A DNA stretch of 36,393 bases from a virus. Its lineage: Duplodnaviria; Heunggongvirae; Uroviricota; Caudoviricetes. The position numbers were made by a program, and so were the translations under genes. This document shows, piece after piece, positions 5,761 through 32,903 of this stretch (the stretch's first letter is position 1; every line of letters starts with the position of its first letter). Location of the stretch: the IMG/VR virus record IMGVR_UViG_2534682108_000013, positions 1 through 36,393 of that record, one strand, 5' to 3'. The notes below the pieces were generated by a model. The model was not told where the DNA came from, did not search any database, and saw only the letters and a list, made by a program, of their open reading frames with translations.

Positions 5761-6839
5761 CAGAACGGGTCCTCTTTGACTTTCCGTTTTTTGCCGCGCT
5801 TCTTACTGTCATTTTCAGGTTCTGGCAGATAGGCATCCGGCGGCCCGACACGTAATTCGGTTATTGTGCCGTTGTTGTCTTTAGTGAATGACACTTCAGA
5901 AATGAGCAGCTCGCGGTTATTGAAGCCACAAATGGGGTCATAGACGATAACGCGCTGGTTTGGTTGCCACAGTGAACCGTCACCCTGCCGCCAGCCCCAC
6001 ACTGTGTATGTGGTTTCATCGGTACGTGCAGCTCGCTGGCGCGCCTCGAATTCAGCACGCGCAATGCAACTGGCTCCTGTTGACTGCCCCGTCTGCTGTA
6101 CTGCCATGGGACGATAGCGGCCAATTGATGCGTCTGTTGTTTTTGCGCGAAGCGCCGTTGTTGTCGCAGCCCCAAAATCATCATCGTTTCCGGCACGCTG
6201 ACCAGAAACCTGATAAGTGGAAAAACGTTCACGGATGCTTTTCTCGGTATCGCAGGAAATAACGTTTTTACCCAGCACCAGAGCTGTATGAGCGCGCGTG
6301 CTACCAATGCCGCCGATAACAAGCCTGCCCCGAGGGTCGTCGTAGGCCAGCGCCTGCTGTTGTCCAAGCATCTTGTTGAGGACTTCGATAACTGTTTCAC
6401 CGTGATCGGGTTGTACTCCGGGAATAGCGCCACCCGGTGCGCCAGCGTTTACAACCGCAATACCAAAAGGTCTGGCAAGCGCCGAGGCCACCTGAACGAG
6501 TGATTGCCCATTGAATTGAGTCGGCTCGGCAGCACAATCAATCAGATCGGCGGTCAGACTGCGCCCACTAATTCCGACACTAATTGATCGCGCATCATAG
6601 CGAACCGGCGTTGCTTCAACCCAACCGGTAACCACCAGGTCATCACCGATTAGAACCTCAACCTTGTCGCCGTTTTTAACTCTGGGCTGAAGTGACGTAA
6701 CACCATCACCACCGGGCCACTGTCGGGTGATCTCTACACTAAAATCGCGAGCTAATCGCTCAATCCCTGAACCAATGCGAATTGACGTCCACCCCCCCCA
6801 CTCACGGCCGTTAACACGGAGAGTTACGTTATCGTTCAT
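5760..6839 (-). CDS. Mu gp44-like tail protein (baseplate hub, gpD-like)
   Basis: 359 aa; synteny between DNA-circulation and gpV-like genes. Confidence 0.65.
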   Translation of the reverse strand: MNDNVTLRVNGREWGGWTSIRIGSGIERLARDFSVEITRQWPGGDGVTSLQPRVKNGDKVEVLIGDDLVVTGWVEATPVRYDARSISVGISGRSLTADLIDCAAEPTQFNGQSLVQVASALARPFGIAVVNAGAPGGAIPGVQPDHGETVIEVLNKMLGQQQALAYDDPRGRLVIGGIGSTRAHTALVLGKNVISCDTEKSIRERFSTYQVSGQRAGNDDDFGAATTTALRAKTTDASIGRYRPMAVQQTGQSTGASCIARAEFEARQRAARTDETTYTVWGWRQGDGSLWQPNQRVIVYDPICGFNNRELLISEVSFTKDNNGTITELRVGPPDAYLPEPENDSKKRGKKRKVKEDPF

Positions 6840-8137
6840 CGTACAGGAACCCTCAGTGGAGATACCGGCACAAAGCCAGGATGTGCGACCGCATTGCGCC
6901 TGACAATGTCAGACTCCCGCGCAGCGTTATCGAACCAGGTTGCTGCCAGAACCAGTGCCGGAGTTACCTCATCAGGCGTTCTGACAACGGTCTTTTGGGT
7001 CTGTACCAGGCGGTGTTTTATGTCGTTGTTAAGGTCAGATTTCGCCCGGCGCAAAGCCAGAAACAAACGGTCATCTGTCGTACGGGATAGTTCTTTATCA
7101 ATAGCAGTATTCAGTGTGTCGCGGATATCGACCAGATCATCCCATGCAGGCACGTCGACAACGGTCACTTCATCAGGAGCATTGTTCAGCTCAGGATGAG
7201 TAACAGAAGGCCAGCCAGTGGACTGCTGGCTTTGTTCGCTTGTGGTGATAACTGGAGCGGGTAACGTTGTGACAGCATAAGCCGCTTCGCTTATTGCTGT
7301 TGTGCGAATCGCACTGGCAACATAATTACTTTGCTGCTTCTGGTTCTGCGTCGTCCTGCTGTCCGTGTTCCACACGCCACGCGGTGCCAGATCACTCCCC
7401 ATGGAGATACCTGAAAAATTTTTAATCATTGTGAACAGATCGCTGGCATTACCAGAGAGCCGATTCCCCGAACGCCACATTGTCTGCAACTGATCAACAA
7501 AGCCTTTGCCTGAAGATGGCGGCGGGAGCAGAACAGAGATATCACCCTGCATTAGACGTGCGGCGGCGGAAATGCCAGCATCGACCATCGCCATTTTGTC
7601 AGAGACGTAGCCAAGCATGCTGGTCGCATCGTCAATCACACCGTTCTGTACAAAATCAGGCATACCGTCCATGCCAAACTGGTCGAAGTTATCGCTGATG
7701 CAGTCATCAAGAGCAGAGCAAGAAGAAACCAGCGTGTTAGCCGTTGCGGTACCTGATGTCGGATAAGTAAGTTCACCAGCCTCAACGAAACGAAGATCAA
7801 AGCGCACCATGCGCCCTTCACTGCTCGATGCACTCACGTTAATTTCGCCATCGACGCAAACGCTCATCTCGCCATATGCGGGATGGATAAGGGTCCCAGG
7901 CCCCGGCTTATTGAGAGCCTCAATTAGTCTGTCACGTTGCTCATAGCAGTCATCGCCGATGACATACCCAGAAAATTTAGGTCTTGAAGTTGCTTTGCCC
8001 AGGTCTTCCGTATAGGGCTTATCACGGTTCACAAACTCGTGTGTTTCGACACGCCGCCCAGCGGTTAGACTCTCGTCTTCAGTTTTGAACGGAACGCCAC
8101 GAAACGACGCATCCACCAGCCGATCTTTCCACGCCAT
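6836..8137 (-). CDS. DNA circulation protein (Mu gp43/N-like)
   Basis: ~430 aa following the tape measure; GGAG RBS before the Met at 8137 (the ORF track start 8152 abuts a T-tract). Confidence 0.7.
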   Translation of the reverse strand: MAWKDRLVDASFRGVPFKTEDESLTAGRRVETHEFVNRDKPYTEDLGKATSRPKFSGYVIGDDCYEQRDRLIEALNKPGPGTLIHPAYGEMSVCVDGEINVSASSSEGRMVRFDLRFVEAGELTYPTSGTATANTLVSSCSALDDCISDNFDQFGMDGMPDFVQNGVIDDATSMLGYVSDKMAMVDAGISAAARLMQGDISVLLPPPSSGKGFVDQLQTMWRSGNRLSGNASDLFTMIKNFSGISMGSDLAPRGVWNTDSRTTQNQKQQSNYVASAIRTTAISEAAYAVTTLPAPVITTSEQSQQSTGWPSVTHPELNNAPDEVTVVDVPAWDDLVDIRDTLNTAIDKELSRTTDDRLFLALRRAKSDLNNDIKHRLVQTQKTVVRTPDEVTPALVLAATWFDNAARESDIVRRNAVAHPGFVPVSPLRVPVR

Positions 8138-8152
8138 ATAAACTCCGAGCAT

Positions 8153-8176
8153 AAAAAAACCCGCCGAAGCGGGTTG
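8153..8176 (-). terminator. Rho-independent terminator after the tail-module moron
   Basis: Minus-strand stem CCCGC-TTCG-GCGGG followed by a 7-T run, directly after the moron stop. Confidence 0.55.
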
Positions 8177-8191
8177 AAGAGATAGAATGAA

Positions 8192-8686
8192 TTATCGCAG
8201 AAAAACATCTATTGAATAAATATCTCCAATCTTTAAAAATTTCGAGTCACTTTTACTGTCAATCGACTCAAAGCTATTAACGCCTGAAAACTTCTTCATC
8301 TTATTTTCAAATATAACTTCATCGACACCGGAAAGATATTTAAAAGCCCTGCTAGCCAAAACAACATTACTAAGTTTTTGAGTGTTGCCGTTATCCTTAT
8401 AGAACCATATTTTAACTCTTTCAGTACATGGAGACTGGTATAGCGTCAGATAGAACTGAGGTTCATACTTACTTTCTGCATCATCACTAAGTGCTTCTTC
8501 AGTGGATAATTCTTTTCTGAATTCGTATTGTTTTTTGATAATACCATTTTCTTTAATAGAATTTACGCGAACAGGCTCTTTCCCAAGCGAATCAATGAAT
8601 TCGGATTCGTTGAAGTCGAGCCTGCATTCTTCAGCATTTACTCCAAAAGAAATTAATACCATTAAAAATAATATCATTGAGCGCAT
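8192..8686 (-). CDS. Secreted/periplasmic protein of unknown function (AT-rich moron inside tail module)
   Basis: Signal peptide MRSMILFLMVLISFGVNA|EE; AGGAG RBS 5 nt upstream; visibly AT-rich; own terminator; inserted between tape measure and DNA-circulation genes. Confidence 0.55.
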   Translation of the reverse strand: MRSMILFLMVLISFGVNAEECRLDFNESEFIDSLGKEPVRVNSIKENGIIKKQYEFRKELSTEEALSDDAESKYEPQFYLTLYQSPCTERVKIWFYKDNGNTQKLSNVVLASRAFKYLSGVDEVIFENKMKKFSGVNSFESIDSKSDSKFLKIGDIYSIDVFLR

Positions 8687-8770
8687 GACCACTCCTAAAA
8701 TGTAAACATCCAAGAATGGTAATGTTATATCACCTTTTAAGCATAAGCTACGAAATGATTTGAGTGTTGG

Positions 8771-10561
8771 CTACCCGCCCATGCCAGTTCTACCAATTCT
8801 GGTATAACCAACATCGGTACTCACGTTGATGCCTCTGGATTTCGACTCTGTCACTGTTGTTCCAGGTTGAGCGCCTTTTAGCTCAACAACAACTCTGGCC
8901 TCTGGCTGTGAAGGTGTCCCCTGATTAATCTGATAAGGGTTATAGCCACTGCTAGCAACACCAGTACCATAAGCACCGTAACCACCAGCGCCCCACTGCG
9001 CAGCGTTAGCAGCAGCAACAGTGTCACTGGCTCCATCAGAGAACCATTCAATAATAGGTTTGAGCTTATTCCACATATCCTGGAACCACTTAACAACTGG
9101 TCCCCAGTTATTGATGATCAATCCTAGTGGTGTCCAACCAAAGACTGTTTTCATCAACTCCCATCCGACTTGGAAATATGGCCCAATCTTATCCCACATT
9201 TCTTTAAACCACGGGCCTACCGTACTCCAGTTGGCAATAATATAACCTGCGGCTATTGCAATAAGTCTGAACAATATTCCCCACGGGGACATTGATATAG
9301 TCTTACTTACCAAACCTAAAGCAAAGTTAACTCCCATAAACCCAAGTTTTAAAGCAGCAAGACCAGCAACAAGGCCGACTACTCCCCTGATTACATCAGG
9401 ATTTTTCTCGGCAAAGTTAGAAAATTTTTCCCCGAGATCACCAAGCCAAATAACAATCTGTTTAGTGTCCGATGAAAAAGCACCACCTATAGCTGCGAGT
9501 CCATTTGTAGCTGTCCCTGTCATTGCTTCCCAGAGATTTGCCAAGGTTCCAAGCTGTGCCTCAACACGTTTGTTTAGGCTGGCTTGCTTATTCATTTTTT
9601 GTTGAACCTGGTCATAGCCGTCTTTACCCTTATCTATAAGGGCGTTAACTACCTGGAGTGTTTCCGCATCATCACCAAACAGGGCTTTTAACACTCCCGT
9701 TCGTTTCACATCAGTTAATTTTCTGAGTTTCGATAACTGCGTAAACATTTTATCAATACCGCCGAAACTGCCTTTGCCATCGGTGAAATCAAGATTCACG
9801 CCGAGCTTTTGACGTTGCAGTACTTTATTGACGCCATTGACTTTCTTGATGTCTAAACCGGACTGGATAACTTTGCGAAGGGCGTTTCCGGCTGACTCAC
9901 CCTGCATACCCATCTGGTCCATCATGACGCTGATCGGAGCAAGTCCCTGAGCGGCTTTCAATCCGTCCTTATTAACCATCTTCAGAACTGAGCTGGTTTT
10001 GGTGAAAAACGACAACATGTTGGTGTCATCGACACCAAGGTAAAACGCTTTCTGGATGGTATCAAACAGCCCCATCATGTCATCTGATGCGGTCCCAGTT
10101 GCGTCCTGCATTTTTGCGGCGAATTCTGCCGCTGCTTCAGGTGTTTTTTTAAGCTGTACAGCAAGGTATGCAGTCGCTTTGCCTACCCCACCCAGAATGT
10201 TTTCTGCCGGAATACCCTGGCGAACAAGCATCTGCATCATGTTCTGAAAATCAGCAGTCGTGCCAGGTAACTGATTCCCAAGCCCAACAGCCAGTTTGTT
10301 TATTTTTTCAAAACTATTGCCGACTTCTCCGTTCGCCTGCATCATCGCGACCTTCAGCCCAGTAGCCGCATTCTCCTGATCCGCATAGGCTTTAAGCGAT
10401 ACAGTCAATCCAGCAGCCAAACCACCCGCCAGCGCTAATCCACCTTTTGAAGCTTCCTCTGCCTGGCGCTTGAAACCACGGATATTTTTCTGCATCCGTG
10501 AAAGCGCAGGAGATAGCTTATCTACGCCAGTAATCAGAGCCTTAAGCTCAAATTCAGCCAT
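8771..10561 (-). CDS. Tail tape measure protein
   Basis: 596 aa, Ala/Gly-rich helical repeats, follows the chaperone frameshift region. Confidence 0.85.
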   Translation of the reverse strand: MAEFELKALITGVDKLSPALSRMQKNIRGFKRQAEEASKGGLALAGGLAAGLTVSLKAYADQENAATGLKVAMMQANGEVGNSFEKINKLAVGLGNQLPGTTADFQNMMQMLVRQGIPAENILGGVGKATAYLAVQLKKTPEAAAEFAAKMQDATGTASDDMMGLFDTIQKAFYLGVDDTNMLSFFTKTSSVLKMVNKDGLKAAQGLAPISVMMDQMGMQGESAGNALRKVIQSGLDIKKVNGVNKVLQRQKLGVNLDFTDGKGSFGGIDKMFTQLSKLRKLTDVKRTGVLKALFGDDAETLQVVNALIDKGKDGYDQVQQKMNKQASLNKRVEAQLGTLANLWEAMTGTATNGLAAIGGAFSSDTKQIVIWLGDLGEKFSNFAEKNPDVIRGVVGLVAGLAALKLGFMGVNFALGLVSKTISMSPWGILFRLIAIAAGYIIANWSTVGPWFKEMWDKIGPYFQVGWELMKTVFGWTPLGLIINNWGPVVKWFQDMWNKLKPIIEWFSDGASDTVAAANAAQWGAGGYGAYGTGVASSGYNPYQINQGTPSQPEARVVVELKGAQPGTTVTESKSRGINVSTDVGYTRIGRTGMGG

Positions 10562-31787: not shown

Positions 31788-32903
31788 GTGCCATTATCCA
31801 AGCGTTCAGTTGAAGGCAGTCAAATGGCAAATGCACAGTACGAGAAAGGGAAAATCATACTTGAGCACACTAAAACTCAAGTCAAGAAGGCTGGAGAGTG
31901 CATACGAAAAGGAAATGGTGATATCGAAAAATCAATCGAGATTATCCAGCAGTATAGAGCGGCCCATCTGTACCCTTTGATGATTATTAAAAATCTCGTG
32001 TGGAAACATGCGCAAAAAATAAACAAAAACGCTATCATTGCACGTAGATTAAAACGTCTTCCGACCATTATTGATAAGTTACGACGTAAAACACTTGATG
32101 GTAAAACGCCGAATTCTATTGCTGTAACCCGAATGAGCGATATTGGTGGTTGCCGTGTAATTGTCGAGGACAGACAAGAGTTACTTTTATTAGATTCTTC
32201 GTTAGACAAAAGTCGCACCACCCATAAATCTAAGGTCAAGGATTATATAAGAACTCCGAAACCTACCGGCTACCGTGGTATCCATAGAGTTTATAGTTGT
32301 TATGACAAGGATGAATCTCATCAGTGGAAAGGGTTTGATATAGAAGTACAGTTAAGAACTAAACTCCAACATTTATGGGCCACTACAGTTGAAGTGGTGG
32401 ATTTGTGCGAAGGCAGGGCCCTGAAAACTAACCCATTCGAATCAAACCCTTCATGGATTGAGTTTTTCCAGCTAATGAGTGAATTCATTGCTGATGAAGA
32501 AGGATTCATTTTCCTACCTCCTCATAATAAAAACATCATAAAATCAAGACTTTTAAGTCTTAATGATAAACTTAATGCCATCGAAAAGCTCAGGTCATTT
32601 AACCGGTTATTCTCTGATAAAGAGTTAGACCTTTCCAAGAATAAGGGCGGATATGTAATAATCGCATTAAAATCAAATAAAATATTTTACAAGACCTTTA
32701 CAACATCTCAAAAGCACTTAGCTGTAACTGCATATTCCATTGTTGAAAAAGACGATGATGCAAATGGTTTATTTGTTGAGATGGACGACCTGCGAAAATT
32801 ATCTTCTGCCTACCCTAACTATCTAATCGATACGAGATTTTTTATAGATAAGTTTGAGTTGTATACCAATTCAAGTTATTGGGCAAAACCCCGACAGATT
32901 TAA
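31788..32903 (+). CDS. RelA/SpoT-domain nucleotidyltransferase with C-terminal extension (candidate fused toxSAS-type defence protein)
   Basis: Motifs TRMSDIGGCRVIVEDRQELL, KPTGYRGIHRVY, DIEVQLRTKLQHLWA; AGGAGG-5 nt-GTG start (the ORF track uses TTG at 31761); AT-rich; own terminator. Confidence 0.75.
   Translation: MPLSKRSVEGSQMANAQYEKGKIILEHTKTQVKKAGECIRKGNGDIEKSIEIIQQYRAAHLYPLMIIKNLVWKHAQKINKNAIIARRLKRLPTIIDKLRRKTLDGKTPNSIAVTRMSDIGGCRVIVEDRQELLLLDSSLDKSRTTHKSKVKDYIRTPKPTGYRGIHRVYSCYDKDESHQWKGFDIEVQLRTKLQHLWATTVEVVDLCEGRALKTNPFESNPSWIEFFQLMSEFIADEEGFIFLPPHNKNIIKSRLLSLNDKLNAIEKLRSFNRLFSDKELDLSKNKGGYVIIALKSNKIFYKTFTTSQKHLAVTAYSIVEKDDDANGLFVEMDDLRKLSSAYPNYLIDTRFFIDKFELYTNSSYWAKPRQI

Follow-up and report, generated by a model that had tools for sequence, protein, structure and literature searches.

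T5 Llp, Cor of phi80 and N15, SieA of P22, and Ltp of the Streptococcus phage TP-J34 are phage- or prophage-encoded envelope proteins that prevent the use of a receptor or the entry of DNA. Several envelope exclusion proteins are encoded next to the tail genes that they counter. T5 Llp masks receptors on lysing cells and cell debris, which spares the progeny phages.

The moron concept is established, for example in HK97 (PMC3594210). Gene 15 of HK97 was the first moron to be described. Located next to the tape-measure gene, it codes for an envelope protein whose block of DNA entry depends on the tail, as found in the work of Juhala 2000 and Cumby 2012 (reviewed in PMC3594210). Cargo hotspots are established as well, for example the P2/P4 hotspots (PMC13586616).

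Here, we analysed an AT-rich ORF in the tail module of an SfV-like prophage from E. coli. The SfV-like lineage includes Shigella serotype-converting phages and many prophages of the Enterobacterales. All positions refer to the window, which is the whole stretch of DNA that was analysed (36,393 nucleotides; IMG/VR record IMGVR_UViG_2534682108_000013). A preliminary description had proposed that the ORF is a secreted-protein moron inserted in the tail module. The present analysis largely supports this reading: with a probability of about 95%, the ORF is an optional and exchangeable moron that encodes an exported protein, and not a component of the tail.

Results

The placement of the ORF between a tape-measure (TMP) gene and a DNA-circulation gene was borne out, since both flanking genes matched the corresponding Pfam families, PF10145 and PF07157 (Table 1). 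The downstream gene is Mu N-like and will be called the N gene. Across the loci compared, the TMP's C-terminus is conserved and ends in DVGYTRIGRTGMGG at the stop codon. Positions 7400-9600 of the window are 100% identical to a prophage in E. coli O157:H16 Res13-Lact-PEA12-26 (NZ_CP062876), at a site that adjoins yfdC. The stretch was found in just two of 5,426 complete E. coli genomes.

Table 1. Positions of the ORF, its flanking genes, and the signals between them.
Feature	Position	Strand	Remarks
Tape-measure (TMP) gene; upstream (left) slot boundary	8771..10561	-	596 aa; PF10145 5.5e-25; phrog_28/17727
Candidate extended -10 TGATATAAC, hexamer 8729-8724	8724..8732	-	Own scan; ~37 nt upstream of ATG
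Shine-Dalgarno AGGAG	8692..8696	-	5 nt ahead of ATG; sequence read
ORF, 164-aa precursor	8686..8192	-	ATG at 8686-8684
Codons of predicted Sec-type signal peptide MRSMILFLMVLISFGVNA	8633..8686	-	Predicted cleavage VNA/EE; n-h-c pattern, -3/-1 rule
Mature protein of 146 aa and stop codon	8192..8632	-	17 kDa, pI 5.1; PHROG 8976
Intrinsic-terminator-like hairpin AACCCGC-TTCG-GCGGGTT (8175-8158) and T7 run (8159-8153)	8153..8175	-	Slot feature
GGAG RBS of DNA-circularisation gene; right boundary of exchangeable segment	8143..8146	-	Sequence read
Mu N-like DNA-circularisation/baseplate gene (N gene)	6836..8137	-	PF07157 (DNA_circ_N) 2.8e-30; phrog_184

The T-tract of the terminator had been described as abutting the next gene. 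It does touch an in-frame ATG at 8152, which is the start of the longest ORF (MLGVYMAWKD). This upstream ATG is retained in some IMG/VR relatives and missing in others. The N gene most likely starts at the ATG at 8137 (MAWKD), because this start is preceded by the GGAG and agrees with the RefSeq annotation and with the homologues, which begin with M-[ATS]-W-K-D. Thus, the T-tract abuts the longest reading frame and not the likely true start.

The ORF has a GC content of 0.335 (GC3 0.31), compared to 0.47 for the TMP gene, 0.52 for the downstream gene, 0.47-0.54 for the flanks, and 0.49 for the window. Both the AT-richness of the gene and its AGGAG ribosome-binding site are as first described. 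A TTG start at 8713 (173 aa) was considered and dropped in favour of the ATG on the basis of the Shine-Dalgarno sequence, the RefSeq call, and the homologue starts.

The predicted signal peptide has a charged n-region (MR), a hydrophobic core of 12-13 residues, and V-N-A at positions -3 to -1. This call is a heuristic reading of the n-h-c pattern and the -3/-1 residues. The cleavable signal peptide of the preliminary description (GVNA/EE) stands on the same reading, and the n-h-c pattern with small residues at -1 and -3 is kept in all 15 aligned homologues. The N-terminal segment is the only hydrophobic segment in the protein. A search with the lipobox expression L-[AS]-[GA]-C was negative; in ...GVNAEEC, the cysteine is preceded by two glutamates. 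Every homologue has Cys87, and a single diverged member lacks Cys21, which suggests a Cys21-Cys87 disulfide in the periplasm. Given the Sec signal peptide in the 164-aa precursor, the product should be a soluble periplasmic protein of ~17 kDa, probably with a disulfide.

The protein belongs to PHROG 8976, with a full-length match of residues 1-164 to profile positions 1-164 (E 1.9e-91). PHROG 8976 has no functional annotation, so membership gives no mechanism. Among close relatives, dN/dS is 0.08-0.15. Together with the full-length PHROG match, this establishes that the ORF is a real gene under purifying selection. The family is small. A word-indexed search of 5.8 billion proteins gave 12 clusters, and 12 matches (50% identity clusters), all from this same small family, were also obtained when 1.84 billion representatives were searched exhaustively with an HMM. 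In a scan with one genome per species (185,579 species genomes), the only locus was in Kluyvera. The relatives that have a name are from Kosakonia, Cronobacter, and Salmonella and from the phages SKA5 of Escherichia (62% identity) and AH07 of Pantoea (42%). The region was unmatched when phage genomes were searched with megablast, and two phage homologues were recovered by tblastn alone.

The mature protein of ~145 aa (146 aa by our count) had been described as lacking a recognisable motif, and searches of Pfam, NCBIfam, and PADLOC agree: none gave a match, with zero PADLOC families at E <= 0.01. AlphaFold2 predicts a compact alpha/beta domain (pLDDT 86, pTM 0.78), with a pLDDT of 50-55 at residues 1-20 and ~90 beyond. 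In a profile search of the PDB, the only matches (best E 0.006) were to unrelated proteins and were marginal, at the level of chance. The structure-based homology search that had been suggested as a check found no significant structural relative of the AlphaFold model. One uncharacterised virome protein of similar size in BFVD matches the model with a TM of 0.62. Searches of the superinfection exclusion (Sie) PHROGs, Pfam, PADLOC, NCBIfam, the PDB, and structures gave no match between the PHROG 8976 family and characterised exclusion proteins.

Whether the gap between the TMP and N genes (the slot) always holds a gene was examined in related tail modules. These were gathered from IMG/VR with three N proteins as seeds, plus named phages. 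Modules were counted if both slot boundaries could be located automatically, which gave 197, and a slot of <150 nt was scored as empty. The slot is empty in 70 of the 197 SfV-like modules. The remaining 127 hold cargo from 15 unrelated ORF clusters, the commonest being the PHROG 8976 family (53 loci). All the contexts examined for PHROG 8976 homologues lie between the TMP and N genes. The empty group includes SfV (45 nt), and according to their annotations phiP27 (15 nt) and ST64B (33 nt) are also without a gene in the slot; all three are isolated phages.

Closely related modules with different slot contents show how cleanly the cargo is exchanged. SfV, which is empty, and locus L092, which carries a PHROG 8976 family gene, are 98% identical over the TMP C-terminus and 99.3% identical over the N gene. 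The identity stops within the last TMP codons and restarts at the RBS of the N gene (CGGAGTTTATATG). Likewise, the flanks of an empty slot (L033) and a slot with a different cargo (L030) are 100% and 99% identical. Among the modules found with the N protein of SfV as the seed, in which N is 99-100% identical, 44 slots are empty, 16 hold one other family, and 14 hold the PHROG 8976 family. In five genera, the family gene has a foreign composition, with 31-40% GC compared to 47-63% for the flanks. Kosakonia, Cronobacter, Pantoea, and phage SKA5 each show this low-GC contrast.

These data bear on the idea that the ORF encodes a non-essential but conserved tail or assembly component, such as an ejection helper that acts in the periplasm, with AT-richness being incidental. 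The gene does have a fixed place beside the TMP gene in all family members, and it diverges in step with the tail genes (42-62% identity compared to 52-80%). A structural tail gene should be conserved in all related viable phages. This gene is absent from SfV, phiP27, ST64B, and 70 of the 197 modules, it is replaced by unrelated proteins elsewhere, and it has a foreign composition in all hosts. The near-identical pair of SfV and L092, only one of which has the gene, argues that it is not structural. In addition, a Sec signal exports a protein from the cytoplasm of the producing cell, which is where tails are assembled. A role in the tail is therefore highly improbable. The features seen instead are three that belong to the Juhala/Hendrix definition of a moron: a junction that lacks the gene in close relatives, a deviating GC content, and a downstream terminator. 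The pattern that had been named as grounds for refuting the proposal, a structural tail gene that is conserved and has a phage-like composition, was looked for, and the opposite was found. Thus, the ORF is a moron in the original sense of the term.

Most of the cargo appears to be aimed at the envelope: 11 of the 15 clusters are signal-peptide, lipoprotein, or transmembrane proteins. One alternative cargo, at locus L044, has a match to phrog_8545 (3e-41), which is annotated as 'superinfection exclusion Sie-like'. A further cargo matches phrog_3707, a moron-category family with a membrane-flanked bPH_2 domain. PADLOC gave no credible match in the eight cargo proteins tested. In three cargo families (F6, F10, and F15), the gene is on the opposite strand. 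We also considered that the cargo families are one diverged superfamily. This was rejected on the basis of hhalign comparisons, in which the PHROG 8976 family was set against three other cargo families and two of these against each other; the probabilities were 1-3.5%.

In a few slots, the cargo has a normal GC content and is not envelope-targeted (L200, L202, and related loci; L145 and L149), and so the hotspot is not exclusive to exported proteins. One such gene lies on the opposite strand and encodes 183 aa; another encodes a 187-aa protein that is sometimes found beside a PHROG 8976 family gene in a slot of 1.25 kb.

Prophages in the same host can have different slot contents. In IMG genome 2695420335, the SfV-like prophage locus L028 holds the PHROG 8976 family and L029 holds another signal-peptide family. 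The two are ~100% identical in N and just 73% identical in the TMP C-terminus. Contents also differ between L026 and L032 (IMG genome 2938147185). Such a pattern would be expected if the cargo and TMP type matter for co-residence, and it is anecdotal.

Co-evolution of the cargo with the tape measure was considered and rejected. When all cargo is compared, slot state agrees more often for loci with similar TMP C-termini than for loci with similar N. Within the PHROG 8976 family, identity correlates equally with the TMP C-terminus and with N (rho 0.76 and 0.75), and so there is no sign of specific co-evolution with the TMP. The asymmetry is explained by linkage and the higher conservation of N.

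The hairpin downstream of the ORF had been taken for the moron's own terminator. The hairpin and its run of seven Ts are present as described, but they belong to the slot. A hairpin with a T-run lies directly upstream of the N RBS in 69 of 70 empty slots and in 102 of 127 occupied ones, and cargo is always inserted upstream of it. At its minimum, the slot contains an intrinsic terminator. For this reason, a terminator of the gene's own was rejected, while the slot terminator does serve the ORF. Three stem types with compensatory changes were found: CCCGC/GCGGG, CCCAC/GTGGG, and GCCACCT/AGGTGGC. The equivalent terminator position at L009-L219 and L055 is conserved by structure and not by sequence. 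The conservation of the structure and its presence in empty slots imply that the late tail operon contains a standing terminator or attenuator, which would divide the sheath, tube, and TMP genes from the baseplate genes. A gene for a Q-family antiterminator is annotated in the prophage. A standing terminator amid a Q-antiterminated late operon may be the reason that this junction tolerates inserts bearing promoters. The slot may also be a hotspot simply because it is a rare non-overlapping operon junction that already bears a terminator.

A candidate promoter lies upstream of the ORF. The extended -10 pattern (Table 1) has just two matches in the 36-kb window on both strands, and most family members have a -10-like hexamer at 37-43 nt upstream of the ATG. 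No convincing -35 accompanies the candidate, and a standard consensus scan found no sigma-70 site on the ORF's strand. The ORF of the Cronobacter and Pantoea relatives begins 16-18 nt past the TMP stop, which leaves no space for an intergenic promoter. Expression in the lysogen is plausible. H-NS, which in E. coli typically silences DNA of 33% GC, is a realistic complication. The promoter scan also gave a sigma-70-like site (TTGATA-16-TAGAAT, 10-of-12 match) that is antisense within the ORF (8535..8562, + strand). The AT-rich composition probably produced it by chance; two sites were found by the scan, compared to 3.0 expected in shuffles.

The sequence has no terminator between the TMP gene and the ORF, and late transcripts must therefore include the ORF. 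This raises the possibility that the gene is a lytic-cycle accessory, expressed from the late operon only and exported late, with a role in receptor masking, like that of T5 Llp, or in modulating lysis or the envelope. The operon-like spacing of 16-18 nt in Cronobacter and Pantoea and the late-gene orientation of the family in 53 of 53 loci fit this explanation as well. However, the opposite-strand cargo of F6, F10, and F15 is beyond the reach of the late promoter, and so this class of slot gene is not tied to late expression. The ORF also has its own strong Shine-Dalgarno sequence and a candidate -10, and it is dispensable in SfV-type phages. Overall, we consider a purely late role unlikely.

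Two other AT-rich genes were observed in the window. At 31824..32903 (+), a 359-aa RelA/SpoT-domain protein is encoded on the strand opposite to most phage genes (GC 0.35-0.42). It matches PF04607 (4e-17) and the PADLOC candidate PDC-S33 (1e-92). We take it to resemble the CapRel-type fused toxin-antitoxin alarmone-synthetase defence genes of temperate phages, and the gene is probably a second moron with a role in cytoplasmic defence. At 21186..21749 (-), a sharp island of 0.325 GC contains an ORF of 187 aa whose N-terminal segment is hydrophobic and which matched nothing in Pfam or PADLOC. The lysis region lies on one side of it and the HNH/terminase genes on the other, and it is a candidate for another moron.

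Discussion

The ORF is accessory cargo and not tail machinery. It is a real gene under selection whose product is predicted to be exported and has no characterised relative. The slot that it occupies comes with clean empty alleles and with a dozen or more unrelated cargo families, mostly envelope-targeted. Full-text literature searches found no description of a hotspot between the TMP and N genes of SfV-like phages. Since the moron and hotspot concepts are already established, the advance is incremental and not conceptual. The family itself is an unstudied one. Its practical value is that the cargo of the hotspot provides compact, testable candidates for prophage entry blocks or envelope modifiers.

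For the function of the protein, we tentatively favour a periplasmic block to phage entry, at odds that are short of even. It is favoured because of the 11 envelope-type clusters among the 15, the Sie-like cargo, the bPH_2 cargo of the moron category, and the precedent of HK97 gp15. In this mechanism, the lysogen would make the protein from a weak promoter of the gene's own, the candidate extended -10, and the slot terminator would keep this transcription out of the baseplate genes. The periplasmic protein would then hinder incoming phages as they cross the envelope, whether at receptor access, tail-tip penetration, or DNA transit, and the outcome would be superinfection exclusion that protects the lysogen. 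During lytic growth, the Q-antiterminated late transcript would read through both the ORF and the terminator, and the protein would also be made late.

Another possible explanation is that the protein is a lysogenic-conversion factor that serves host fitness or virulence and has nothing to do with phages. In line with the broader idea of the preliminary description, there would be a Bor- or Lom-like change in the envelope, which could affect stress tolerance, serum or antimicrobial resistance, or adhesion. The ORF protein is exported, AT-rich in its coding sequence, optional, and under purifying selection, and the bor and lom morons do act in this way (PMC3594210). The hosts are animal-, plant-, and environment-associated Enterobacterales, namely E. 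coli from pig and dog, Cronobacter, Kosakonia, and Pantoea. Ecologies this broad also speak against a niche-specific virulence role. Moreover, the PHROG 8976 family is limited to one phage lineage and one slot and is never a chromosomal gene. It is also tiny (12 clusters among 1.84 billion representatives, and one of 185,579 species genomes), and the searches found no similarity to a known virulence or envelope-stress family. A conversion factor is thus rather unlikely. The types of neighbouring cargo seem to point towards phage exclusion, and not towards serum resistance, adhesion, or virulence, although slot neighbours are a weak guide to function.

A stronger form of the entry block would be that the gap between TMP and N is a dedicated entry-immunity locus and that the PHROG 8976 family is a new, soluble periplasmic type of exclusion protein. 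We regard this as improbable. If it were true, each of the interchangeable periplasmic, lipoprotein, or membrane cargo proteins would stop one class of incoming tail from crossing the envelope, and the PHROG 8976 protein, with a fold not seen before, would act on ejected tape-measure or N proteins or on their host partners.

Among described systems, HK97 gene 15 is like the ORF in being an optional insert of deviating GC content in the tail operon, by the TMP gene, with a small envelope-targeted product. Both have a downstream terminator and are patchily distributed among closely related phages. The two proteins are not homologous. HK97 gp15, a short protein of the inner membrane, belongs to the YebO family and is encoded between the tail chaperone and TMP genes, whereas the ORF lies after the TMP gene and its product is predicted to be a soluble periplasmic domain of 146 aa. 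Prophage expression and exclusion activity have been demonstrated for HK97 gp15, while for the ORF both are proposed.

The likeness to bor and lom of lambda is that all are accessory genes of prophages, in or near the late region, and encode exported envelope proteins. Bor is a lipoprotein and Lom is an outer-membrane beta-barrel, unlike the ORF protein, which has no lipobox and a mixed alpha/beta fold, and there is no sequence or structural similarity. Llp, Cor, SieA, and Ltp are lipoproteins or membrane proteins of unrelated families without homology to the ORF protein, and what they share with it is the proposed mode of action. Finally, the slot differs from the P2/P4 hotspots in its SfV-like lineage, its position in the tail operon, and its cargo, which consists of single small envelope proteins and not of recognised cytoplasmic defence systems. 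It resembles those hotspots in being a fixed slot with empty alleles and unrelated, rapidly exchanged cargo, between conserved flanks that may serve as anchors for recombination.
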